From assembly GCF_053078305.1 (NCBI RefSeq), contig NZ_CP166879.1: a DNA stretch of 64,000 bases. One strand, written 5' to 3'. Numbering within the stretch: position 1 is the first letter of the stretch; each line of letters begins with the position of its first letter. This document shows positions 14,440-28,637 of this stretch, one piece after another. A model generated the notes under the pieces. The model saw nothing but the letters and a program-made list of their open reading frames with translations, did no database searches and was not told the origin of the DNA. Both the position numbers and the translations under genes were made by a program.

Positions 14440-16151
14440 TGAGCGAAAAACATCCAGGGCCTTTAGTGGTCGAAGGAAAACTGACAGACGCCGAGCGCAT
14501 GAAGCTTGAAAGCAACTACCTGCGCGGCACCATTGCGGAAGATTTAAACGACGGTCTGACCGGCGGCTTTAAGGGCGACAACTTCCTGCTGATCCGCTTC
14601 CACGGCATGTATCAGCAGGATGACCGCGACATCCGCGCCGAACGTGCTGAACAGAAGCTGGAGCCGCGCCACGCGATGCTGTTGCGCTGCCGTCTGCCGG
14701 GTGGGGTGATTACCACTAAACAGTGGCAGGCGATAGACAAATTTGCCGGTGAAAACACCATCTATGGCAGCATTCGCCTGACCAACCGCCAGACGTTTCA
14801 GTTCCACGGCATTCTGAAAAAGAACGTCAAACCGGTGCACCAGATGCTGCACTCGGTTGGTCTTGATGCGCTGGCGACCGCTAACGACATGAACCGTAAC
14901 GTACTCTGCACCTCGAACCCTTACGAGTCGCAGCTACACGCGGAAGCGTATGAATGGGCGAAGAAAATCTCTGAACATCTGCTGCCGCGTACCCGCGCGT
15001 ATGCGGAGATCTGGCTCGATCAGGAAAAAGTCGCCACCACTGATGAAGAACCGATCCTCGGCCAGACCTACCTGCCGCGTAAATTCAAAACCACGGTAGT
15101 GATCCCGCCACAGAACGATATCGATCTGCACGCCAACGACATGAACTTCGTGGCGATCGCCGAAAACGGCAAGCTGGTGGGCTTTAACCTGTTGGTGGGC
15201 GGTGGGCTTTCCATCGAACACGGCAACAAGAAAACCTACGCCCGCACCGCGAGTGAGTTTGGCTATCTGCCGCTAGAGCATACGCTAGCGGTGGCGGAAG
15301 CCGTCGTGACAACTCAGCGTGACTGGGGTAACCGAACCGATCGTAAAAATGCCAAAACCAAATACACGCTGGAGCGCGTGGGGGTTGAGACGTTTAAAGC
15401 GGAAGTGGAGCGTCGCGCGGGGATCAAATTTGAACCGATCCGTCCGTATGAGTTCACCGGACGCGGAGATCGTATTGGCTGGGTTAAGGGCATTGATGAT
15501 AACTGGCACCTGACGCTGTTTATCGAAAATGGTCGCATCCTTGATTATCCGGGGCGTCCGCTGAAAACCGGCCTGCTGGAGATCGCGAAGATCCACAAAG
15601 GTGATTTCCGCATTACGGCGAACCAGAATCTGATCATCGCCGGTGTGCCGGAAAGCGAGAAAGCGAAGATCGAGAAGATCGCCAAAGAGAGCGGGTTAAT
15701 GAATGCCGTCACGCCGCAGCGTGAAAACTCAATGGCCTGCGTCTCGTTTCCGACTTGCCCGCTGGCGATGGCGGAAGCGGAGCGTTTCCTACCGTCTTTT
15801 ATCGACAACATCGATAATTTAATGGCGAAACATGGTGTTAGCGATGAGTATATCGTGATGCGTGTAACAGGCTGCCCGAACGGTTGTGGTCGCGCGATGC
15901 TGGCGGAAGTGGGCCTGGTGGGTAAAGCGCCGGGTCGCTACAACCTGCATCTTGGCGGCAACCGTATTGGGACACGTATCCCACGGATGTATAAAGAAAA
16001 CATCACCGAGCCGGAAATCCTGGCGTCGCTTGATGAACTGATAGGGCGCTGGGCGAAAGAGCGCGAAGCGGGTGAAGGCTTCGGCGACTTTACGGTGCGT
16101 GCGGGCATCATTCGCCCGGTGCTCGATCCGGCGCGCGATTTGTGGGATTAA
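14439..16151 (+). CDS. cysI: Sulfite reductase hemoprotein beta component
   Basis: 570-aa ORF; start overlaps the cysJ stop; siroheme/4Fe-4S Cys motifs. Confidence 0.95.
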
Positions 16152-16166
16152 CCATCAGCCCGGTCT

Positions 16167-16203
16167 TGTAGGCCTGATAAGACGCGTGAGCGTCGCATCA
16201 GGC
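16167..16203. repeat. REP element
   Basis: TGTAGGCCTGATAAGACGCGTGAGCGTCGCATCAGGC between cysI and cysH. Confidence 0.8.
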
Positions 16204-16224
16204 AAGGCAAACAGTGAGGAATCT

Positions 16225-16959
16225 ATGCCCAAACTCGATCTAAACGCCCTGAACGAACTGCCGAAGGTAGATCGCATTCTGGCGCTGGCAGAAACTAACG
16301 CCCAACTGGAAAAACTGGACGCTGAAGGCCGCGTAGCCTGGGCGCTGGATAATCTGCCCGGTGAATATGTGCTTTCTTCCAGCTTCGGCATTCAGGCGGC
16401 GGTGAGCCTGCATCTGGTGAATCAGATTCGCCCGGATATTCCAGTGATCCTCACCGATACCGGTTACTTGTTCCCGGAAACCTACCGCTTTATTGACGAG
16501 TTAACGGACAAACTCAAGCTCAACCTGAAAGTGTACCGTGCTACCGAAAGCGCAGCCTGGCAGGAAGCACGCTACGGAAAACTGTGGGAACAGGGCGTTG
16601 AAGGCATTGAAAAGTACAATGACATCAACAAAGTCGAACCGATGAACCGGGCGCTGAAAGAACTTAACGCGCAAACGTGGTTTGCTGGCCTGCGCCGCGA
16701 ACAATCCGGCAGCCGCGCCAATTTACCGGTGCTGGCAATTCAGCGTGGCGTATTTAAAGTGCTGCCGATTATCGACTGGGATAACCGAACTATTTATCAG
16801 TACCTGCAAAAACATGGCCTTAAATATCACCCATTATGGGATGAAGGATATTTATCGGTTGGTGATACCCATACAACCCGTAAATGGGAACCCGGCATGG
16901 CTGAAGAAGAAACGCGTTTCTTTGGCTTAAAAAGGGAATGTGGGTTACACGAAGGGTAA
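16225..16959 (+). CDS. cysH: Phosphoadenosine phosphosulfate (PAPS) reductase
   Basis: 244 aa from ATG 16225 ([14 protein letters not shown]...); C-terminal ECGLH motif. Confidence 0.95.
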
Positions 16960-17223
16960 ATATTGCCGGATAAATTAAACGCCTCTGTCAGAAATGATGG
17001 GGGCGTTTTTATTTTGCGAGCAGCATTCCTGATTTTAAACGTGAACGCCGCTGGAAGAATTAACAGGTATAGAATGGTGTTGGGTGCTTGAGGCTGTCTG
17101 GCGTTAAGCATTCGCGAGGTTCCAGATGGACAAAAGCCCCAGGCGATATTTCTATCAACCTGAGGCCAGCGTTCGAACCTAAGCAATTCGAATGTTAGTC
17201 TCTTCTTTGCAGGGAGGCAAGAC

Positions 17224-17376
17224 ATGCTGACAAAATATGCCCTTGTGGCAATCATCGTACTGTGTTGTACAGTACTGGGATTCACGCTGATGGTAGGCGA
17301 CTCGTTGTGTGAGTTGAGTATCAGAGAACGTGGTATGGAGTTTAAGGCTGTTCTCGCTTACGAATCGAAGAAGTAG
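17224..17376 (+). CDS. Hok/Gef-family type I toxin (50 aa), intact
   Basis: Translation [50 protein letters not shown]: hydrophobic N-terminal helix, conserved SLCE and AYES motifs of the Hok family; GGAGG 9 nt upstream of ATG. Below the track's 60-aa cutoff. Confidence 0.85.
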
Positions 17377-17381
17377 CCACC

Positions 17382-17403
17382 ACGCGGGGGTAAAACCCCG
17401 CGT
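17382..17403 (+). terminator. GC-rich hairpin directly after the hok-like ORF (mRNA 3' structure or terminator)
   Basis: ACGCGGGGG-TAAAA-CCCCGCGT perfect 8-bp stem; the following T-tract is weak. Confidence 0.4.
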
Positions 17404-17568
17404 ATTGAATTGTGATGGTTTGGTCTCCTGCACCCTTTTTTAAATTTATATTTTTTATGTGAATATATTGTCTCTATTTATTATTATGAATTTCAAATGA
17501 AAATCATAAATTTATTCACAATATAAATGTTTTATTGGCTGATATATATCACAGATAATTTTTAAAAT

Positions 17569-20268
17569 ATGCGTAAATATCCTTTAAGTTTACTGAAGGA
17601 TAAAAATATTGTGACTTTCTTTGATTTCTGGGGAAAAACCCGACGCGACGAGAAAGAAGGGGGTGACGACTATCACCTTCTTTGCTGGCATTCGCTGGAT
17701 GTGGCCGCGATGGGCTATTTAATGGTTAAAAGAAATTGCTTCGGGCTGGCTGATTATTTTCGTCAATTAGGGATTTCTGACAAGGAACAGGCGGCTCAAT
17801 TTTTCGCCTGGTTGTTGTGCTGGCACGATATTGGAAAATTTGCCCGCTCATTTCAGCAACTTTACCTGCACCCACAACTCAAGGTTCTGGAAGGCGCAAG
17901 AAAGAATTACGAAAAGATCTCTCATTCAACGCTGGGCTACTGGTTGTGGCATCATTATTTAAGTGAATGCGAAGAATTGCTTCCTGCCTCTTCACTCTCT
18001 ACTCGCAAACTTAAACGTGTAATAGCGATGTGGATGCCCATGACTACCGGGCATCATGGTCGGCCCCCTGACCGTATTGATGAACTGGATAATTTTCTGC
18101 CTGAAGACAAAGCTGCCGCACGAGATTTTCTCCTTGAAATCAAGTCACTGTTTCCGCTCATAGAGATTCCCACATTCTGGGATGATGACGAGGGCGTTGA
18201 ACTTTTAAAACAACTTTCCTGGTATATCTCTGCAACAGTCGTACTCGCAGACTGGACGGGTTCGTCAACGCGATTTTTTCCACGCGTCGCACAGACAATG
18301 AATATTAAAGATTACTGGCAGAAAACTTTAGTTCAGGCTCAAAACGCCTTAACCGTCTTTCCTCCAAAAGCAGAAACCGCACCTTTCACCGGAATTAATA
18401 CGCTGTTTCCTTTTATTGAGCACCCGACACCATTACAGCAAAAGGTACTGGATCTGGATATCAGCCAGCCAGGGCCACAGTTATTTATTCTGGAAGATGT
18501 GACTGGCGCAGGTAAAACAGAAGCGGCGCTTATCCTGGCGCACAGGTTGATGGCTGAGAATAAAGCTCAGGGTTTGTTTTTTGGCCTGCCAACAATGGCA
18601 ACGGCCAATGCCATGTACGATCGGCTGGTCAAAACCTGGCTTGCTTTCTTTTCGCCAGAATCCCGCCCCAGCCTGGTGCTGGCACACAGCGCCCGTACAT
18701 TAATGGAACGCTTTAATGAATCACTCTGGTCCGGTGATTTAGTCGGGTCAGAAGAACCGGATGAACAAGCGTTCAGTCAAGGATGTGCAGCCTGGTTTGC
18801 CGACAGTAACAAGAAGGCTTTACTGGCTGAAATTGGCGTCGGCACGCTGGATCAGGCGATGATGGCAGTGATGCCGTTTAAACATAATAATCTGCGGCTT
18901 CTGGGGTTGAGTAACAAAATCCTGCTGGCTGATGAGATCCACGCCTGTGACGCTTACATGTCGTACATTCTTGAAGGGTTGATTGAGCGACAGGTGCGTG
19001 GCGGAAACAGCGTCATTTTGCTTTCTGCTACGTTATCTCAACAGCAGCGCGACAAACTTGTCGCCGCCTTTGCGCGTGGCACAGAGGGCCAGCAAGAAGC
19101 TCCGTTCCTGGAAAAGGATGATTACCCCTGGCTGACGCATGTCACGAAATCCGATGTGCATTCGCACCGGGTAGCGACGCGCAAAGACGTTGAGCGTAGC
19201 GTGAGCGTGGGTTGGCTTCATAGCGAACAAGAATGTATTGCGCGTATCGAATCAGCGGTAAGTCAGGGGAAATGCATCGCCTGGATCCGGAATTCTGTCG
19301 ATGACGCTATTAAGGTTTATCGTCAGTTACTTGCCCGCGGCGTCATTCCTGCTTCCAGCCTTTCACTTTTTCATAGCCGCTTTGCTTTTAGCGATCGCCA
19401 GCGAATTGAAACGGAAACGCTGGCACGCTTTGGTAAAAATTGTAGTTTAAAAAGATCATCTCAAGTCATTGTTTGTACACAAGTAATTGAGCAAAGTGTG
19501 GATATTGACCTGGACGAAATGATCTCCGACCTGGCCCCCATTGATTTGCTGATCCAGCGAGCGGGGCGATTACAACGGCATATTCGTGATATTAATGGTC
19601 AGTTAAAACGTGATGGAAAAGACGAGCGTTCCCCTCCTGAATTGCTGATTCTGGCCCCCGTCTGGGACGACTCTCCGGGTGACGAATGGTTTGGTAGTGC
19701 GATGCGTAACAGCGCATATGTCTACCCCGATCATGGGCGAATCTGGCTGACGCAGCGAGTATTGCGTGAGCAAGGCGCTATTCAGATGCCACACGCAGCC
19801 CGGCTTCTTATTGAATCCGTCTACGGTGAGGACGTGGTAATGCCGGAAGGATTTGCCCGCAGCGAGCAGGAGCAAGTGGGCAAATATTACTGCGATCGCG
19901 CAATGGCTAAAAAGTTTATGCTGAACTTCAGGCCCGGCTATGCCGCCAATATCAACGATTACCTCCCGGAAAAGCTGTCGACACGTCTGGCTGAAGAGTC
20001 TGTTTCCCTGTGGCTGGCTACCTGTATTGACGGTGTGGTGAAGCCTTATGCCAGCGGTGCTCACGCATGGGAAATGAGCGTTGCCAGAGTGCGTCGAAGC
20101 TGGTGGAAAAAACATCGGGATGAATTTTCTTTACTGGAAGGGGAAGCGTTCAGGCAGTGGTGCATTGAACAACGGCAAGATCCGGAGATGGCAAACGTGA
20201 TTTTAGTCACCGATGACGAAAGCTGCGGGTATTCGGCTACGGAAGGATTGATTGGCAAGGTTGATTGA
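17569..20268 (+). CDS. cas3: Cas3 helicase-nuclease (type I-E)
   Basis: 899-aa ORF; N-terminal HD domain region, DExH helicase motifs (GAGKTEAAL, DEIH). Confidence 0.95.
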   Translation: MRKYPLSLLKDKNIVTFFDFWGKTRRDEKEGGDDYHLLCWHSLDVAAMGYLMVKRNCFGLADYFRQLGISDKEQAAQFFAWLLCWHDIGKFARSFQQLYLHPQLKVLEGARKNYEKISHSTLGYWLWHHYLSECEELLPASSLSTRKLKRVIAMWMPMTTGHHGRPPDRIDELDNFLPEDKAAARDFLLEIKSLFPLIEIPTFWDDDEGVELLKQLSWYISATVVLADWTGSSTRFFPRVAQTMNIKDYWQKTLVQAQNALTVFPPKAETAPFTGINTLFPFIEHPTPLQQKVLDLDISQPGPQLFILEDVTGAGKTEAALILAHRLMAENKAQGLFFGLPTMATANAMYDRLVKTWLAFFSPESRPSLVLAHSARTLMERFNESLWSGDLVGSEEPDEQAFSQGCAAWFADSNKKALLAEIGVGTLDQAMMAVMPFKHNNLRLLGLSNKILLADEIHACDAYMSYILEGLIERQVRGGNSVILLSATLSQQQRDKLVAAFARGTEGQQEAPFLEKDDYPWLTHVTKSDVHSHRVATRKDVERSVSVGWLHSEQECIARIESAVSQGKCIAWIRNSVDDAIKVYRQLLARGVIPASSLSLFHSRFAFSDRQRIETETLARFGKNCSLKRSSQVIVCTQVIEQSVDIDLDEMISDLAPIDLLIQRAGRLQRHIRDINGQLKRDGKDERSPPELLILAPVWDDSPGDEWFGSAMRNSAYVYPDHGRIWLTQRVLREQGAIQMPHAARLLIESVYGEDVVMPEGFARSEQEQVGKYYCDRAMAKKFMLNFRPGYAANINDYLPEKLSTRLAEESVSLWLATCIDGVVKPYASGAHAWEMSVARVRRSWWKKHRDEFSLLEGEAFRQWCIEQRQDPEMANVILVTDDESCGYSATEGLIGKVD

Positions 20269-20297
20269 GATGCCCTGGCGTCGGATGACGCCAGGGC

Positions 20298-20321
20298 TTA
20301 TCCCCGCTGACGCGGGGAACA
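20298..20321 (-). repeat. Solitary CRISPR repeat-like sequence, inverted relative to the arrays
   Basis: TTATCCCCGCTGACGCGGGGAACA matches the reverse complement of the array repeat (TTATCCCCGCTGGCGCGGGGAACA) at 23 of 24 positions; preceded by an 11-bp-stem hairpin at 20272-20297. Confidence 0.7.
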
Positions 20322-20712
20322 GGAACCAATTTTTGTATCTCACTAACTTGGTTAATCCCTAGAATCAGGGAATGGATTTATTTTATCAATGCTATTGTGA
20401 TTATGATAGATGGGTAATTGCTATGAGTTAATGAGAAACAAAAATTTTAAATAATGTCCGGATCCGGAGTTGAGTCACACCGTTACAAGGCGTATTTTCG
20501 TGACCGGTGAAAAGCTGCGGTGAAGAGGACTACGATGTTGTCGATTTTTTTGCTTCAACTTGTGCTAAGTCTGCTTTCAAAACGACAAACTAAGTTCGAT
20601 TTTCGTATCACATTCAACGTCTTTTCTTTTATCCGACTCAGATTAAGTCTCCAACTAAATCTGAAAATATGGTGATGGACAACCGACCAGGGATGGTCTT
20701 TTCTACGAGAGG

Positions 20713-22281
20713 ATGCGTATGAACTCGTTTTCACTTCTGACAACCCCGTGGTTGCCCGTTCGTTTTAAAGACGGAACGACAGGCAAACTGGCGCCAGTCG
20801 ATCTGGCTGATGAAAATGTTGTCGATATCGCTGCGCCACGAGCAGATCTCCAGGGAGCAGCATGGCAGTTTTTACTGGGGCTACTACAAACCAGTTTCGC
20901 GCCCAAAAATCATGGTCGTTGGGATGATATCTGGCAAGACGGACTGGAAGCCGAAAAGCTACGGGAAGCATTGCTGTCTTTAGAACATGCTTTCCAGTTT
21001 GGGCCAGATTCCCCTTCATTTATGCAGGATTTCGAGGCGCTCACGGGAGATAAAGTTCAGGTTGCTTCATTACTGCCTGAGATTCCCGGCGCTCAAACAA
21101 CGAAGTTTAATAAAGACCACTTTATTAAGCGTGGCGTGACTGAACACGTATGCCCTCATTGTTCCGCGTTAGCTCTGTTCTCCCTACAGTTAAATGCACC
21201 GTCAGGCGGCAAAGGCTACCGAACCGGTTTACGCGGCGGTGGGCCGATGACGACTCTGATTGAATTGCAGGAGTATCAGGGCAATCAACAAGCCCCCTTG
21301 TGGCGCAAACTGTGGCTCAACGTGATGCCGCAGGATGAAGCCGACTTACCGCTACCCAAAAAATTTGACGATCTGGTTTTCCCCTGGCTTGGCCCGACGC
21401 GTACCAGCGAACTGGCCGGTGCGGTGGTAACCGATGATCAGGTCAATAAACTCCAGGCGTACTGGGGAATGCCGCGGCGTATTCGTATTGATTTTAATAC
21501 CACGACAGTCGGCAACTGCGATATTTGCGGTGAGCAGGACGACGCGCTTCTGAGCCTGATGACGACCAAAAATTACGGTGCGAATTATGCCATGTGGCAG
21601 CATCCATTAACGCCTTACCGTGTACCACTTAAAGAGGGTGGCGAGTTTTACTCAGTTAAACCACAACCAGGCGGTTTAATTTGGCGCGACTGGTTAGGCC
21701 TTATCGAAACGGGTAAGTCAGAAAACAATACGGAACTTCCCGCTCTGGTGGTGAAACTCTTTAATGCCAGCAGTCTCAAGCAGGCAAAAGTAGGCCTATG
21801 GGGATTTGGCTATGATTTCGACAACATGAAAGCCCGCTGTTGGTACGAACACCGTTTCCCGCTGCTGCTCAATAAAAAAGAAGGCCAGATACCGAAACTG
21901 CGGCTGGCTGCGCAAACGGCTTCACGCATTCTAAGTCTGTTACGGAGTGCATTGAAAGAAGCATGGTTCTCCGATCCAAAAGGTGCACGGGGTGATTTCA
22001 GTTTTGTGGATATCGACTTCTGGAACAAAACTCAGCATCGCTTCCTGAGGTTAGTGCGCCAAATTGAAGAAGGTCAGGATGCGGATGAATTACTCAGCAA
22101 ATGGAATAAGGAGATTTGGTTATTCTCGCGTCAGGATTTTGACGAGCGTGTATTCACCAATCCTTATGAGCCCGTTGATTTAAAACGCGTCATGACCGCG
22201 CGCAAAAAATATTTTACAACATCGGCGGAGAAGCAAAATGCTAAAGCCGCCAGGGAGAAAAAGCAGGAGGCTGCTGAATGA
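20713..22281 (+). CDS. casA: Cascade large subunit Cse1 (CasA)
   Basis: 522-aa ORF; start could be the ATG at 20719; first gene after the AT-rich intergenic region. Confidence 0.9.
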   Translation: MRMNSFSLLTTPWLPVRFKDGTTGKLAPVDLADENVVDIAAPRADLQGAAWQFLLGLLQTSFAPKNHGRWDDIWQDGLEAEKLREALLSLEHAFQFGPDSPSFMQDFEALTGDKVQVASLLPEIPGAQTTKFNKDHFIKRGVTEHVCPHCSALALFSLQLNAPSGGKGYRTGLRGGGPMTTLIELQEYQGNQQAPLWRKLWLNVMPQDEADLPLPKKFDDLVFPWLGPTRTSELAGAVVTDDQVNKLQAYWGMPRRIRIDFNTTTVGNCDICGEQDDALLSLMTTKNYGANYAMWQHPLTPYRVPLKEGGEFYSVKPQPGGLIWRDWLGLIETGKSENNTELPALVVKLFNASSLKQAKVGLWGFGYDFDNMKARCWYEHRFPLLLNKKEGQIPKLRLAAQTASRILSLLRSALKEAWFSDPKGARGDFSFVDIDFWNKTQHRFLRLVRQIEEGQDADELLSKWNKEIWLFSRQDFDERVFTNPYEPVDLKRVMTARKKYFTTSAEKQNAKAAREKKQEAAE

Positions 22282-22814
22282 GTATTGTAAAAGAGGAGCA
22301 CAAAGCCACGCTGCGTAAATGGCACGAAGAGTTGCAGGCTAAACGCGGCAATCGTGCCAGTCTGCGGCGTAGCACAACGGTTAATGATGTTTGCTTGTCA
22401 GAAGGGTTTCGTTCTCTGCTGATGCAGACCCACACTTTGTGGAAAATTGAAGCACAAGAGTGGCGTTTTACCGCACTGGCGCTGGTCGCCGCAGTTAGCG
22501 CCAATGTAAAAGCCATTGATGAACGGCAGCCTTTTGCCGCGCAGCTGGCGGCGGTAATGTCGGAGGGGCGTTTTACTCGCCTGTCGGCAGTAAAAACGCC
22601 GGATGATTTACTGCGTCAGTTACGTCGCGCGGTCAAATTATTAAACGGTTCCGTCAATCTTATCTCTTTGGCAGAAGATATTTTCCGCTGGTGCCAGGAG
22701 AGCGACGACCTGCTCAATCATCACCGCCGCCAGCAGCGGCCAACCGAATTTATCCGTATCCGCTGGGCACTGGAATATTACCAGGCTGGCGACGCCGATA
22801 ACGAACAAAATTAA
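22278..22814 (+). CDS. casB: Cascade small subunit Cse2 (CasB)
   Basis: 178-aa ORF overlapping the casA stop. Confidence 0.9.
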   Translation: MSIVKEEHKATLRKWHEELQAKRGNRASLRRSTTVNDVCLSEGFRSLLMQTHTLWKIEAQEWRFTALALVAAVSANVKAIDERQPFAAQLAAVMSEGRFTRLSAVKTPDDLLRQLRRAVKLLNGSVNLISLAEDIFRWCQESDDLLNHHRRQQRPTEFIRIRWALEYYQAGDADNEQN

Positions 22815-22828
22815 TAAAGGACTATCTC

Positions 22829-23884
22829 ATGACAACATTTATTCAGCTTCATTTGTTAACCGCTTACCCTGCTGCCAACCTTAACCGTGATGATACTGGT
22901 GCGCCAAAAACTGTGGTACTGGGTGGTGCAACGCGTCTGCGCGTTTCCTCACAAAGTCTGAAACGTGCGTGGCGCACTTCTGCACTTTTTGAACAGGCAC
23001 TGGCGGGCCATATTGGTATTCGCAGTGGGCGAATTGCGCGTGAGGCGGCAACTATCCTGATTGAGAAAGGAATCGAAGAGAAAAAAGCCATCGAATGGGC
23101 GGCAAAAATTGCGGATTATCTTGGGAAAGCTAAAAACGACAAAAAACCAAAAGATCCGCTCACTAACGCCGAAACTGAACAATTAGTTCATATCAGCCCG
23201 GCAGAATTTGACGCCGTAAAAGCGCTGGCCCATCAACTGGCAGAAGAAAAGCGCGCGCCAAAAGAGGAAGATCTCGCGTTGTTACGTAAAGACCGTATAG
23301 CGGTAGATATCGCTATGTTTGGTCGTATGCTGGCGAATAAACCTGAGTTTAATGTTGAAGCCGCCTGCCAGGTCGCGCATGCGTTTGGTGTCAGTGAAAC
23401 GATTGTCGAAGATGATTTTTTCACCGCCGTTGATGATTTGCGCCAGGCCTCTGAAGATGCCGGTGCCGGGCATCTCGGAGAAACCGGATTCGGTTCAGCA
23501 CTTTTCTACACCTATATCTGCATTGATAAAGATCTGCTGGTAGAAAACCTCGGCGGTGACGAAGCGTTAGCTAATCAGACCATACGCGCTTTTACGGAAG
23601 CCGCGCTTAAAGTTTCCCCAACCGGTAAACAAAATAGCTTTGCCAGCCGTGCCTACGCCTCCTGGGCGCTGGCGGAAAAAGGCACTGATCAACCGCGTTC
23701 TCTGGCGGCGGCTTTCTATGAACCCATTAATGGTACCCGTCAGTTAGATGTGGCGGTGCAGCGTATTACAACGCTTCGCGAAAACATGAATACGGTCTAC
23801 GAACAGAAGACTGAATGCGCAAGTTTTGACGTGATGAACAAACAGGGAAGCATGAAGGACGTACTGGACTTTATCTGCGCGTAA
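22829..23884 (+). CDS. casC: Cascade backbone Cas7e (CasC)
   Basis: 351-aa ORF; N-terminal MTTFIQLHLLTAYPAANLNRDDTGAPK. Confidence 0.9.
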   Translation: MTTFIQLHLLTAYPAANLNRDDTGAPKTVVLGGATRLRVSSQSLKRAWRTSALFEQALAGHIGIRSGRIAREAATILIEKGIEEKKAIEWAAKIADYLGKAKNDKKPKDPLTNAETEQLVHISPAEFDAVKALAHQLAEEKRAPKEEDLALLRKDRIAVDIAMFGRMLANKPEFNVEAACQVAHAFGVSETIVEDDFFTAVDDLRQASEDAGAGHLGETGFGSALFYTYICIDKDLLVENLGGDEALANQTIRAFTEAALKVSPTGKQNSFASRAYASWALAEKGTDQPRSLAAAFYEPINGTRQLDVAVQRITTLRENMNTVYEQKTECASFDVMNKQGSMKDVLDFICA

Positions 23885-23894
23885 GGGGCGGCTT

Positions 23895-24641
23895 ATGAGC
23901 CAATATCTGATTTTTCAGCTTCATGGGCCAATGGCATCCTGGGGCGTCGATGCCCCCGGCGAAGTGCGTCATACCCATGAACTGCCTTCGCGCTCAGCAT
24001 TGCTGGGTCTGCTGGCTGCCGGGGTAGGGATTCGGCGTGATGATACCGAACGCTTAAACGCGTTTAATCGCCACTATTCACTGGTGGTTTGCGCCAGCCG
24101 TAACCCGCGCTGGGCACGGGATTATCACACGATCCAGATGCCAAAAGAGGTGCGCAAAGCGCGTTATTTCAGCCGTCGCGAAGAGTTGAGCGACTCTGAT
24201 CTTCTGAGCGCGATTATCTCCCGGCGCGACTACTACACCGACGCCTGGTGGATGGTGGCGGTGGCAACAACAGCCGATGCGCCTTACAGCCTCGAACAGT
24301 TGCAGGGCGGTTTACGCCATCCAGTTTTTCCTCTTTATCTGGGGCGAAAAAGTCATCCGCTGGCATTACCACTTGCGCCGTTACTGCTCGAAGGCAACGC
24401 GTCTGATGTTTTACGTAACGCATACCAACAGTATCAGGATCATTTCCACGACCTGAAAGTCTCACTCCCGAAACTTCAGGATGAATGCTGGTGGGAAGGG
24501 GAGCACGACGGCCTGGTCGTGAGCAAAATATTACGCCGCCGGGATGTTCCTTTAAATCGCCAGCAGTGGCTGTTTGGGGAACGCACCGTCAATCAGGGGC
24601 CGTGGCTCAGCAAGGAGGAACCATGTACCTCTCAAGAATAA
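23895..24641 (+). CDS. casD: Cascade Cas5e (CasD)
   Basis: 248-aa ORF at the expected position in the operon. Confidence 0.9.
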   Translation: MSQYLIFQLHGPMASWGVDAPGEVRHTHELPSRSALLGLLAAGVGIRRDDTERLNAFNRHYSLVVCASRNPRWARDYHTIQMPKEVRKARYFSRREELSDSDLLSAIISRRDYYTDAWWMVAVATTADAPYSLEQLQGGLRHPVFPLYLGRKSHPLALPLAPLLLEGNASDVLRNAYQQYQDHFHDLKVSLPKLQDECWWEGEHDGLVVSKILRRRDVPLNRQQWLFGERTVNQGPWLSKEEPCTSQE

Positions 24642-25269
24642 CCTTACATACCGCTCAGCTTTTGCCTGCGCAGTTGCTGCATCTGGTGGATCGCGGTGAA
24701 TATGTGATGCATCAGTGGCTGTGGGATCTCTTCCCTGGCGGCAAAGAAAGGCAATTTCTTTATCGTCGGGAGGAACTTCAGGGTGCGTTTCGCTTTTTTG
24801 TCCTCTCGCAGGAACGCCCGGCGGAAAGTGAAACTTTCACTATCGAATGCCGGTCATTTGCTCCGGAGCTGCGTACCGGACAATCCCTTTGTTTCAACCT
24901 GCGGGCGAATCCCACAATTTGTAAAGCGGGCAAGCGCCACGATCTGCTGATGGAGGCGAAACGGCAGGTGAGGGGACAGGCGGAAGGGCGTGATGTCTGG
25001 TTGCATCAACAACAGGCGGCGCTGGACTGGCTGGCAGCGCAGGGGGAGAGAAGCGGTTTTACACTGCTGGATACCTCGGTTGATGCCTACCGACAACAGC
25101 AACTGCGGCGGGAAAACTCCCGGCAACTGATCCAGTTCAGTAGCGTGGATTATACGGGGATGCTTACGGTCACCGATCCCGGGTTATTTCTGCAACGTCT
25201 CAGTCAGGGGTATGGCAAAAGCCGCGCGTTCGGCTGTGGTCTGATGCTGATCAAACCCGGAGCAGAGGT

Positions 25270-25273
<4 letters not shown>
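24623..25273 (+). CDS. casE: Cas6e (CasE) pre-crRNA endoribonuclease
   Basis: 216 aa from ATG 24623 (MYLSRITLHTAQLL...); the track ORF starts upstream at 24485; overlaps casD end. Confidence 0.9.
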
Positions 25274-26483
<1,210 letters not shown>

Positions 26484-26580
26484 GTTATGTGTTCTTTAAA
26501 AATAAGGAAATGTTTGAATTTAGTTGGTAGATTGTTGATGTGGAATAAATTTGTTTAAAAACAGATATGTATGCTTAGTG
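26484..26580 (+). promoter_or_regulatory. CRISPR leader (AT-rich) between cas2 and the first repeat
   Basis: 97-bp AT-rich stretch ending ...AACAGATATGTATGCTTAGT directly before the first repeat. Confidence 0.8.
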
Positions 26581-27579
26581 TGTTCCCCGCGCCAGCGGGG
26601 ATAAACCGGGGGGGCAATAATATGTGCGGCGGATCACCAGGTGTTCCCCGCGCCAGCGGGGATAAACCGTCGGAAAAATGGCTGGCCTCAACGGTGAAAA
26701 CGTGTTCCCCGCGCCAGCGGGGATAAACCGCCAGGGTGAAACTTTTCGCTGACGTAAATAAAGTGTTCCCCGCGCCAGCGGGGATAAACCGACAATCACA
26801 TATACGACGCGAGACGGAGATCGGTGTTCCCCGCGCCAGCGGGGATAAACCGTGATGGGCGAATACAAGCGCTGGCGCAACGAGGTGTTCCCCGCGCCAG
26901 CGGGGATAAACCCGGCATTCTTAACCGGCGCAACAAGGGGGGCGCGTGTTCCCCGCGCCAGCGGGGATAAACCGGTTAACTCCAGGTGGCGCGGCAGTGT
27001 TCAGAAGTGTTCCCCGCGCCAGCGGGGATAAACCGTGCTCTCATTTGTGTCGGCATCACTCGCGTCGGTGTTCCCCGCGCCAGCGGGGATAAACCGTCTG
27101 CCGCGAGCTGGTCTACGCCTACGCCATGGTGTTCCCCGCGCCAGCGGGGATAAACCGACATATGCCACAACCAGGCGAAGAAAAGTGTTCCCCGCGCCAG
27201 CGGGGATAAACCGCCCGTCACCGACGCGCAGTGGCGCTACCGTGAGTGTTCCCCGCGCCAGCGGGGATAAACCGGTCGCTGGGTTATTTTGTGTTGTGGG
27301 GCGATCGTGTTCCCCGCGCCAGCGGGGATAAACCGCTCATATTCGGATTGATCGTGTGTTTCGGTTTGTGTTCCCCGCGCCAGCGGGGATAAACCTGCGT
27401 ATATCTGTTGATGCGCACGGCGTGGCGGGTGTTCCCCGCGCCAGCGGGGATAAACCGAATGATTTAATACCAGACGCAGAGTGCCACACGTGTTCCCCGC
27501 GCCAGCGGGGATAAACCGGGCGCACTGGATGCGATGATGGATATCACTTAGAATTCCCCGCCCCTGCGGTAGAACACCC
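26581..27579 (+). CRISPR. cas-proximal CRISPR array (type I-E): 16 intact repeats plus 1 degenerate terminal repeat, 16 spacers
   Basis: Repeat GTGTTCCCCGCGCCAGCGGGGATAAACCG starting at 26581, 26642, 26702, 26763, 26824, 26885, 26946, 27007, 27068, 27129, 27185, 27246, 27307, 27368, 27429, 27490; degenerate GAATTCCCCGCCCCTGCGGTAGAACACCC at 27551-27579. Confidence 0.97.
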
Positions 27580-27599
27580 AGCTCCCATTTTCCAACCCA

Positions 27600-28637
27600 T
27601 CAAGACGCCTTCGCCAACTCCTTCACCAGCGGTAGCATTATCCGCATAACGTCACGGCAACGACGTTCTATTCTTCCAGGAAGTGCTTTATCAATATGTT
27701 GCTGATTATCCAGTCTTACGTCATGCCAGCTATTTCCCGCAGGGAATGCGGCTGTTTTTGCGCGTTGCTGATAACCATCCTTATTCCCAAGATTCCAGTT
27801 AGTCGCTTCCACCGAAAGTACAGCAATGCCCGCTTTGTCGAATATTTCTGCGTCATTACAACACCCAGTGCCTTTCGGATAATTTTTATTCAAACCCGGA
27901 TTGGTCGTTGCGGCAATTCCATGACTACGCGCAATTGCCAGCGCCCTGTCGCGCGTTAATTTCCTTACTGCTTCAGGGGTTTTTACACCGCTGTTGAAAT
28001 ACAATTTATCGCCAACAATTAAGTTATCGAGATTAATCACCAGCAGCGTATTTTTCTTTTCGGTGTCACTCATCCGCTTGAGTAAATTCTCAGCGCCTAA
28101 TTTCCCTTCCTCTTCGCCGCTGGTCGCCACAAATCGAATACCATACTCGGTAGGCGTATTTTTCAGGCGTTCTGCCAATTCCAGCATGACACCTAAACCT
28201 GCGGCGTTATCATCCATTCCTTGTAACGTCAGCCCGCCGAGATTGGCATCGGCGTCAGCATCGCTCAGCGGGGCGTAAGTATCCAGATGCGCCATAATGA
28301 TGATCTGCTGCGGCGCTTTGCCTTCATGAGCGGCAATCACCGTACTTCCCGTCACGTTATGCCAGCTCTTGCGATTATCGCGGGCGGTATAAATATACCG
28401 ACTATTAAATGTCCGAATATCACTGCGATAACCCATTTGCTGAAACTGTTGGCGAATATAATCGGCAGATAACATTTCTGCAGGAGTTCCGGTCATGCGT
28501 CCCGGAAAGAAAGTAGCAATATGTCGTGCCTGGGTATTAGCAAAATCGCCAGGTTTAGGTGACGAGGCGTGTACGGGGAGAATAAAGCATACGCCGAGCG
28601 CCAGGGCAGCGGTACGGTGGCGCAATGCGGAAAACAT
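27600..28637 (-). CDS. iap: Alkaline phosphatase isozyme conversion aminopeptidase
   Basis: 345-aa ORF with signal-peptide-like N-terminus; flanks the CRISPR array. Confidence 0.85.
   Translation of the reverse strand: MFSALRHRTAALALGVCFILPVHASSPKPGDFANTQARHIATFFPGRMTGTPAEMLSADYIRQQFQQMGYRSDIRTFNSRYIYTARDNRKSWHNVTGSTVIAAHEGKAPQQIIIMAHLDTYAPLSDADADANLGGLTLQGMDDNAAGLGVMLELAERLKNTPTEYGIRFVATSGEEEGKLGAENLLKRMSDTEKKNTLLVINLDNLIVGDKLYFNSGVKTPEAVRKLTRDRALAIARSHGIAATTNPGLNKNYPKGTGCCNDAEIFDKAGIAVLSVEATNWNLGNKDGYQQRAKTAAFPAGNSWHDVRLDNQQHIDKALPGRIERRCRDVMRIMLPLVKELAKAS

Follow-up and report, generated by a model that had tools for sequence, protein, structure and literature searches.

The strongly AT-rich DNA that separates the hok/sok locus from cas3 in the analyzed window (a stretch of 64,000 nucleotides) is best interpreted, with a probability of about 0.72, as the cas3 control region, namely, a promoter that would be silenced by H-NS and modulated by CRP, an ordinary and expected arrangement. 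The limits of the regulatory tract most likely are 17443-17610, replacing the interval 17404-17568 that was originally predicted, because positions 17404-17442 are the 3' end of hok, and the cas3 start is most likely the GTG at 17611. The AT-rich stretch is a real compositional feature with the ordinary meaning of an expected regulatory region, and the general picture remains unchanged. The additions made here are a probable correction of the cas3 start codon, a candidate CRP-type site that is conserved in position across genera, and a rare, retained putative mini-array upstream of casA.

According to the RefSeq annotation of an identical strain, the window is a part of the E. coli chromosome that encompasses cysJ-cysI-cysH, a Hok/Gef gene, cas3, casA-casB-cas7e-cas5e-cas6e-cas1e-cas2e, a CRISPR array, iap and cysD. 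The cas locus belongs to type I-E and represents the cas-E1 variant, with the array known as CRISPR2.1; in this nomenclature, introduced by Almendros et al. 2014 (PMC3903273), K-12 is cas-E2. Across 16960-17700, the identity is 100% with strain PapM-32-1 and 99.9% with JX21CE8. A probe covering 17377-17800, with matches required to span at least 80% of the probe length, was matched in 2,729 of the 5,426 complete E. coli genomes, each with E1 cas3, so that about half of the complete genomes searched carry this variant. The regulatory work, in contrast, is nearly all on K-12 (E2), whose cas3 upstream DNA is unrelated. The features of the interval between cysH and cas3 are the following.

16977-17008, plus strand: cysH intrinsic terminator (terminator scan; a 14-bp stem followed by a T-run, with the K-12 sequence identical)
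17082-17239, plus strand: hok mRNA leader, from the tac 5' end via the Sok target region to the hok start (Rfam RF01794 'sok' and K-12 alignment)
17126-17184, minus strand: equivalent of the Sok antisense RNA (K-12 ncRNA sokX, b4701, mapped via the gap-free alignment)
17224-17376, plus strand: hok toxin ORF of 50 amino acids, intact here and deleted in K-12 (ORF list; PGAP)
17382-17403, plus strand: GC-rich hairpin in the hok 3' UTR, ACGCGGGG-GTAAAA-CCCCGCGT (fold; no T-run follows)
17424-17441, plus strand: hok mRNA 3' end, consisting of the fbi element UCUCCUGCACCC (17424-17435) and then U6 (fold and conservation)
17443-17537, no strand assigned: distal AT-rich tract, cas-E1-specific, a proposed H-NS platform (composition, presence pattern and allele comparison)
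17538-17553, no strand assigned: candidate CRP/FNR-family binding site GCTGAtatataTCACA (motif match and position in orthologues)
17554-17583, plus strand: core-promoter zone with competing -10 candidates (promoter scan, -10 scoring and conservation)
17569-17571, plus strand: annotated cas3 ATG, probably not the start codon (no Shine-Dalgarno sequence; frame breaks in relatives)
17578-17602, plus strand: inverted repeat UAUCCUUUA / UGAAGGAUA, with the arms at 17578-17586 and 17594-17602 (fold)
17596-17600, plus strand: predicted Shine-Dalgarno sequence AAGGA for the GTG start (read from the sequence)
17611-20268, plus strand: cas3, E1 variant, 885 amino acids from GTG 17611 (PGAP annotation and orthologue starts)

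The strong AT-richness between the hok 3' hairpin and the cas3 ATG, which is the core of the original prediction, is clearly confirmed: the 165 bp at 17404-17568 are 79.4% AT compared to 47.5% in the whole window, and only 0.18% of the 165-bp windows across the 64 kb are equally GC-poor. The flanks are also as described, with the GC hairpin at 17382-17403 located right after the hok stop and ATG 17569 opening the long cas3 ORF. The core of the stretch, 17437-17568, is 85.6% AT and represents the lowest-GC 130-bp stretch in the 64 kb, whereas the AT content is 84.9% in 17443-17568 and 82.7% in the 168 bp of the cas3-specific non-coding tract 17443-17610. In this tract, the density of TpA steps is 0.156 versus 0.042 in the window (3.7-fold), in agreement with the view that this is regulatory DNA upstream of cas3 with a composition favored by H-NS. 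The next three AT troughs are located at 26450-26579, 20328-20457 and 652-781; the first two lie in CRISPR-Cas non-coding DNA, that is, the CRISPR2.1 leader and the putative creR/casA-promoter zone, respectively, unlike the third, which sits between two repeat clusters. The phased A/T tracts that had also been ascribed to this DNA were not detected. The AA/TT Fourier power at 10-11.5 bp did not exceed that of shuffled sequences (the observed value was reached by 60% of 1000 dinucleotide shuffles), the best AA/TT period in the tract is 8 bp, and the centers of the A/T tracts are irregularly spaced, at 5-29 bp. Curvature caused by phased A-tracts is a frequent but not an obligatory feature of H-NS-silenced promoters.

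The AT-rich composition of the DNA preceding cas3 is shared by the lineage as a whole. We compared 12 orthologous loci from other Escherichia, Citrobacter, Klebsiella, Phytobacter, Salmonella, Franconibacter and Chimaeribacter, and in 10 of these, the GC fraction of the 150 bp upstream of cas3 is 0.22-0.35, against 0.49-0.56 for the locus. The AT-rich DNA is independent of hok because it is found in orthologues that lack hok, namely, those from Citrobacter, Klebsiella, Phytobacter and Salmonella; in the first three of these genera, cysH is directly upstream of cas3. Within E. coli, the tract is confined to strains with E1 cas3, being present neither in E2 strains nor in those lacking cas genes. 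In strains without any cas genes, the match runs from 17377 exactly to 17442 and is followed by iap. The tract is therefore tied to cas3 rather than to hok, because the cas-less strains keep the hok DNA up to 17442 yet lose the tract.

The right limit of the tract depends on the cas3 start codon, which had been taken to be ATG 17569 but most likely is GTG 17611, judging by the comparison of related sequences. There is no Shine-Dalgarno sequence ahead of ATG 17569, and AAGGA is found ten nucleotides upstream of GTG 17611, where it is kept in E. coli alleles as GAAGGATAAA. In L010, L011 and T-HYM1, the ATG is out of frame with cas3 or is followed by in-frame stops, and in other genera, it is absent altogether. 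In all 12 orthologous loci, Cas3 starts at the equivalent of GTG 17611, with stops or frame changes just upstream. Furthermore, 1-bp indels between the ATG and the GTG were identified in three Escherichia lineages, and these leave the ORF that begins with the GTG intact. The practical consequence is that an ATG-based annotation labels an intact cas3 as a frameshifted pseudogene in strains with a 1-bp indel in the leader. Thus, cas3 of T-HYM1 is annotated as "frameshifted", yet its ORF from the GTG is intact, with 885 amino acids and 93% identity to the Cas3 of the window.

On the left, the tract borders a complete hok/sok locus, as indicated by the Hok ORF, the sok family match and the tac-fbi pairing. 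The Rfam family RF01794 'sok' matches 17082-17239 with 111.7 bits, compared to a gathering score of 59 (E=2.6e-25), and in a gap-free alignment, the hok leader is near-identical to that of K-12 up to the hok ATG. In the identical strain, PGAP annotates 17224-17376 as 'Hok/Gef family protein' WP_000956458.1. In the minimum-energy fold of 17082-17445, the fbi element UCUCCUGCACCC pairs with the 5' tac GGGUGCUUGAGG, closing the 5' end on the 3' end (-130.6 kcal/mol, z=-3.74, 0 of 100 shuffles); such tac-fbi closure is typical of hok mRNAs. The terminator scan found no canonical terminator within 17377-17445, and the local hairpin ahead of the U6 run is only -3.1 kcal/mol. The 5' end of Sok maps to 17184, and transcription runs to 17126, away from cas3 and toward cysH; a putative Sok promoter, TTGCCT-17-TAACAT on the minus strand at 17220-17192, was recognized by eye. 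The leader, the 50-amino-acid Hok ORF, tac-fbi, the putative Sok promoter and a site for IS186-family elements are all shared with the chromosomal hok/sok type I toxin-antitoxin loci. This insertion site is the hairpin at 17382-17403, which in strain CB209 is split by an IS421 element; the IG2-IG3 boundary is an IS186 hot spot (PMC3903273). K-12 diverges immediately past the hok ATG to E2-specific DNA that is unrelated to the window, and there the hok ORF and the 3' end are gone, in agreement with previous reports on the loss of the hok ORF (PMC3903273, PMC12736100). The hok/sok locus adjoins the cas3 control region without being a part of it, and shares only 17404-17442 with the interval originally delineated. 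A role of hok as a CreTA-like guardian of the cas locus was considered and rejected, given that hok is intact in strains devoid of cas genes and that cas3 persists in genera lacking hok.

The cas3 tract consists of two blocks that differ in conservation. The distal block, 17443-17537, likely corresponds to 'IG4', an E1-specific intergenic element described by Almendros et al. 2014 (PMC3903273). Among E. coli strains, there are two alleles of this block, with 22-23 differences in 98 columns, indels included. In the proximal block, 17538-17610 (73 bp), there are 0-6 differences in 73-74 columns among the E. coli alleles and 3-6 between the two alleles; by this measure, the proximal 73 bp are under clear constraint. 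We propose that the conserved proximal block would comprise a CRP-type operator, the core promoter, a short leader with AAGGA, and GTG 17611, and that the fast-evolving distal ~95 bp would be a loading platform for H-NS. H-NS would spread from the distal tract over the promoter and hold down cas3 expression, with CRP-cAMP modulating promoter activity. The permissive Rfam scan of 16000-28000 (E-value up to 1) yielded no match within 17404-17610, the only matches being the sok leader, a REP-like naRNA4 in the cysI-cysH spacer and the cysH terminator. Small ORFs in the cas3 upstream tract were not found either, except for unsupported, over-extended antisense or overlapping ORFs.

The candidate CRP-type site, GCTGAtatataTCACA, opens the proximal block, matches 8 of the 10 core positions of TGTGA-N6-TCACA and is centered 65 nt before GTG 17611. 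When the 200 bp before the start codon were scanned in 11 enterobacterial lineages, the best CRP-like site was found at -63 to -67 in seven, an agreement that was reached in none of 2000 trials with a base-shuffle null and in none of 2000 trials with a circular-shift null. The cas3 upstream sequences from other genera do not align with those of E. coli, yet the position of the CRP-type site holds. Among the E. coli alleles, the right half-site is invariant, whereas the left half-site is degenerate and variable (GCTGA, AATGA, AACGA). Half-sites of the GTGA/TCAC type favor CRP. We therefore consider 17538-17553 a candidate CRP-type operator conserved in position, with the binding of CRP and the sign of its effect inferred from the sequence. 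In some species, FNR fits the candidate site about equally well.

Promoter prediction in the adjacent zone yielded a mixed result: -10-like hexamers are present in 17554-17583, which is nearly invariant among the E. coli alleles, but several candidates compete, namely, GATAAT (17554-59), TAAAAT (17563-68), TAAATA/AAATAT (17574-80) and TATCCT (17578-83). A -10-like hexamer follows the CRP core at a distance of 19-23 nt in 7 of 8 lineages (21-23 nt in six of these). This spacing in the orthologues, together with that in K-12, suggests by analogy that CRP would be centered near -41.5 of the presumed start site, compatible with class II activation. The window hexamer at the class II spacing is weak, with AAATAT ranking 12th of 51 and stronger hexamers found at +1, +10 and +25; the better -10 candidates, TAAAAT and GATAAT, are placed such that CRP would act as a repressor and not as an activator. 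On the minus strand, the promoter scan also picked up two promoter-like sites within the distal tract, at 17496-17467 and 17490-17462.

The inverted repeat at 17578-17602 folds into a hairpin of -8.2 kcal/mol (z=-2.64; 4 of 200 shuffles are as stable), with the 1-bp indels mentioned above located in its loop. The hairpin is kept across Escherichia, and in E. albertii, the equivalent stem is built from a different sequence; among the other genera, no equivalent was detected in Salmonella and Phytobacter. In transcripts starting upstream of 17578, the modeled hairpin would sequester the cas3 Shine-Dalgarno sequence, which we regard as a lead rather than a finding.

Silencing of the E1 cas3 promoter by H-NS is plausible given the composition of the tract and the precedents from K-12 and S. 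Typhi. An AT content of 83% over 168 bp is well within the range bound by H-NS in xenogeneic silencing. The high-affinity H-NS motif TCGATAAATT has a single 8/10 match in the tract, at 17509-17518, and no better one; across the window, there are 80 matches to this motif versus 59±9 expected, which is barely above chance. In K-12, the cas3 transcript is up 8-fold in Δhns, in stationary phase only (PMC4782391), another study reported about 5-fold derepression of cas3 in an hns mutant (PMC5394155), and according to Westra 2010, as cited in PMC4782391, the cas3 transcript is unchanged in log phase. The S. Typhi unit that contains cas3 is silenced by H-NS according to Medina-Aparicio 2017, as cited in PMC8039139. 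The K-12 cas3-casA spacer is a classic target of H-NS, documented by Pul 2010 (as cited in PMC3903273), and is listed as an H-NS-associated promoter island (PMC3661553). In the literature searched, we found no H-NS or expression results for the E1 variant. The findings on the K-12 cas promoters, to which the original prediction referred, do not carry over by homology, given that K-12 is E2 and its cas3 upstream DNA is unrelated past the hok ATG.

The likeness to the K-12 cas3 promoter is one of position and role. In both cases, a short AT-rich spacer between the hok/sokX leader and cas3 has the same job, and a CRP site, a candidate one in the E1 tract, is found about 60-65 nt before the start codon. 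In K-12, CRP binds the cas3 promoter and activates it about 3.5-4-fold, with mutational support for the site (PMC7019758); the published site precedes a GATAAT hexamer by 22 nt and the start codon by 59 nt. A -10-like hexamer about 22 nt past the CRP core is common to K-12 and most of the E1-type orthologues. The K-12 spacer, however, is 91 bp long and 66% AT compared to 168 bp and 83% AT here, and K-12 has lost the hok ORF and 3' UTR, which are both kept in the window, so that the hok leader directly abuts the cas3 promoter. The E1 and K-12 Cas3 proteins are only distant relatives, with 29-31% identity (PMC12736100). We considered whether the tract is homologous to the K-12 DNA preceding cas3 and discarded this possibility (local alignment, P=0.15). 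The Salmonella orthologue belongs to the same Cas3 lineage as that of E1 (64% identity over 300 amino acids) and is encoded downstream of cysH with another ORF in between. Its cas3 upstream DNA resembles that of E1 in having a GC fraction of 0.26 and a CRP-type site at -64, but is not alignable with the E. coli tract and lacks hok/sok. If the E1 promoter is both CRP-responsive and H-NS-silenced, the principle that Cas3 is limiting and linked to the nutritional state would be no peculiarity of K-12 but a conserved design.

Several other readings of the tract have to be weighed against this interpretation. A passive AT-rich spacer, that is, a junction left by hok/sok insertion or by exchange of the cas module, with a weak constitutive promoter and no control by H-NS or CRP, appears unlikely. 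Such a spacer would agree with the fast evolution of the distal part (two alleles that differ by ~23%, plus indels), the absence of A-tract phasing and of a strong H-NS nucleation motif, the location of the region exactly at a module boundary (PMC3903273), and the unchanged level of K-12 cas3 in Δhns cells in log phase (as cited in PMC4782391). However, AT-rich DNA also occurs in genera where hok was never located at this place and hence does not represent a scar of hok, constraint acts on the proximal block, the CRP-type site keeps its position where the flanks no longer align, and the 168 bp at 83% AT are well inside the H-NS binding range. Somewhat less probable than the passive spacer is an elaborate form of control, a two-level insulation of E1 cas3. 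The H-NS-coated tract, at ~85% AT, would block read-through from the constitutive hok promoter and silence spurious promoters arising in such DNA, the Shine-Dalgarno hairpin would silence the transcripts coming from upstream, and CRP-cAMP would switch the cas3 mRNA from an untranslatable to a translatable form. The 5' arm of the hairpin would lie just upstream of the expected class II start (about 17587-17590), such that only transcripts begun at ~17587-17590 would lack this arm and be translated. Read-through transcripts from hok and those from the TAAAAT/GATAAT promoters, which CRP would occlude, would be translationally silent.

Read-through from hok is the only way in which hok/sok could couple to cas3: the hok promoter might feed cas3 transcripts, or transcription from it might disturb the H-NS filaments and the cas3 promoter. 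The tandem arrangement of hok and cas3, with 234 bp from the hok stop to GTG 17611, is compatible with such coupling, as are the lack of a canonical terminator in the hok 3' region (17377-17445, with only -3.1 kcal/mol for the hairpin at U6), the fusion of the K-12 hok promoter and leader 91 bp upstream of cas3, and the finding that transcription entering H-NS patches can relieve silencing (PMC9335307). Nevertheless, the conserved promoter architecture is also found in genera without hok, the GC hairpin 17382-17403 and the tac-fbi helix with U6 may terminate transcription or stabilize the 3' end, and the cas3 Shine-Dalgarno sequence, locked in the 17578-17602 hairpin, would make for poor translation of read-through transcripts, so that this coupling seems improbable, slightly more so than two-level insulation. 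The original prediction, in which convergent or antisense transcription from hok/sok disturbs an H-NS-silenced cas3 promoter with phased A-tracts, is hardly credible. Its convergence is contradicted because hok is co-directional with cas3 on the plus strand, and Sok, on the minus strand, runs away from cas3; the tracts are not phased, and what speaks for this scheme is general AT-richness only. The minus-strand sites at 17496-17467 and 17490-17462 could give rise to RNA antisense to the hok 3' end, but such RNA would not come from hok/sok.

The second region to which the original prediction applied, 20330-20712 upstream of casA, turned out to be of a different kind. It is only 62% AT and hence not as AT-rich as the cas3 tract, although the sub-stretch 20328-20457 reaches 73%; the whole cas3-casA spacer, 20269-20712 (444 bp), is 58% AT. 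The comparison between the two upstream regions holds only by luck. The long spacer is unusual for E1: among the 5,426 genomes, it is present in 6, with three more carrying a diverged version, and it is missing from about 2,400 other genomes that were matched by a cas3-casA junction probe and have a spacer of roughly 97 bp instead. The orthologues in other genera also have short cas3-casA spacers. The long spacer contains the following features.

20294-20374, minus strand: creR-type regulatory mini-array, putative (repeat search and dissection)
20374-20349, minus strand: ψR1, a degenerate repeat
20348-20323, minus strand: ψspacer, 26 nt
20322-20294, minus strand: ψR2, a near-perfect repeat
20423-20446, plus strand: predicted target of the mini-array RNA, PAM ATG and AGTTAATGAGAAACAAAAATT, about 270 bp upstream of casA

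Over 21 nt, the ψspacer agrees with 20426-20446 at 18 of the 18 non-sixth positions, the mismatches being confined to positions 6 and 12. This target is unique in the window, and at least 17 of 18 matching positions were obtained in 0 of 20 shuffles; no match of the ψspacer was detected in the cas3 upstream tract, the sole target in the window being the one upstream of casA. The creR mini-array architecture is found in about a fifth of the I-E loci, and creR has been demonstrated experimentally in S. enterica and in a Pseudomonas I-F system (10.1101/2023.03.03.530964, 10.1101/2023.03.10.532045). Judged by these matches, 20294-20446 is a putative creR mini-array with its target, an element of a known kind in a rare retained copy, and the region upstream of casA is better called a creR/casA promoter zone than H-NS-type AT-rich DNA.

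The K-12 counterpart of this spacer, IGLB, carries Pcas and anti-Pcas and is the textbook case of silencing by H-NS, which LeuO relieves (Pul 2010 and Westra 2010, as cited in PMC3903273 and PMC4782391). Like the cas3 promoter, IGLB belongs to the CRISPR-Cas locus and is AT-rich and regulatory, but it controls casA rather than cas3 and is 70.5% AT compared to 83% in the E1 cas3 tract. The long cas3-casA spacer of the window follows the IGLB layout, in which AT-rich DNA separates casA from an inverted repeat-like element adjacent to cas3; homology between the two spacers was considered and rejected, the similarity being not significant beyond the repeat-like element (P≈0.04). In the K-12 cas3-casA spacer, a repeat-like palindrome occupies the equivalent place, and the anti-Pcas transcript arises there (PMC7074321). 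The putative mini-array has been lost in most E1 strains and kept in few lineages, so that autoregulation of Cascade may differ by strain.

The cas3 gene of the window probably starts at the GTG codon at 17611, in which case the annotated start, the ATG at 17569, is wrong. In some strains, a 1-bp indel lies between these two codons, and as a result, an intact cas3 is called a “frameshifted” pseudogene by PGAP. About 33 complete genomes match the allele of strain T-HYM1 at 99% identity or more. The features at and upstream of the start codon are as follows:

17382-17403, GC hairpin directly 3' of hok
17462-17496, pair of overlapping sigma-70-like sites within the AT-rich tract (minus strand)
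17569-17613, cas3 start-codon region (counterpart in T-HYM1, locus L022, 303-348; also in strain CB209, locus L008, and in the compared loci L010 and L011)
17578-17602, inverted repeat UAUCCUUUA/UGAAGGAUA

In transcripts that begin upstream of 17578, the inverted repeat would sequester the Shine-Dalgarno sequence of cas3. Escherichia retains this repeat, in E. albertii with a different sequence, whereas Salmonella and Phytobacter do not.

The two predicted minus-strand sites would be directed at the 3' end of hok, and may be spurious promoters of the sort that AT-rich DNA generates. In some strains, such as CB209, the GC hairpin is split by an IS421 element of the IS186 family, in agreement with the IS186 hot spot described previously (PMC3903273); in strains with this insertion, the match lacks about 10 bp on the left side of the hairpin.

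The cas3-casA spacer of the window (20269-20712) is a rare long form, present in 6 of 5,426 genomes; in the other genomes matched by the probe, this spacer is about 97 bp long. The long spacer contains two related elements:

20294-20374, minus strand, creR-type regulatory mini-array
20423-20446, predicted PAM-flanked target of the mini-array, about 270 bp upstream of casA

The pseudo-spacer of the mini-array matches this site, positions 6 and 12 being the only mismatches. Immediately 5' of the casA ribosome-binding site, there is a small hairpin with a downstream T-run (GACCAGGGATGGTC TTTT, 20685-20698), which is kept in short-spacer and long-spacer strains alike.

The cas3-casA spacer of K-12 contains a degenerate inverted CRISPR repeat, CGGTTTATCCCTACTTAAGTAGGGAAGG, 43-72 nt past the cas3 stop codon; its 5'-handle segment is perfect, and its stem shows compensatory changes. 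The repeat occupies the same place as the second pseudo-repeat of the window mini-array (20322-20294), and the published anti-Pcas transcript of K-12 arises at this site. From cysH up to the hok ATG (17224-17226), the window and K-12 are near-identical; beyond it they are unrelated, which indicates that the K-12 cas-E2 module took the place of all sequence from hok codon 2 onward. This replacement therefore left the hok promoter and leader facing cas3, 91 bp away.

Segment 652-781 (GC 0.16), the second most AT-rich in the window, lies between two groups of CRISPR repeats:

14-528, CRISPR array of nine repeats
1033-1120, two degenerate repeats

Together, these three segments presumably represent a second CRISPR locus (CRISPR-II, arrays CRISPR2.2-2.3) with a leader.
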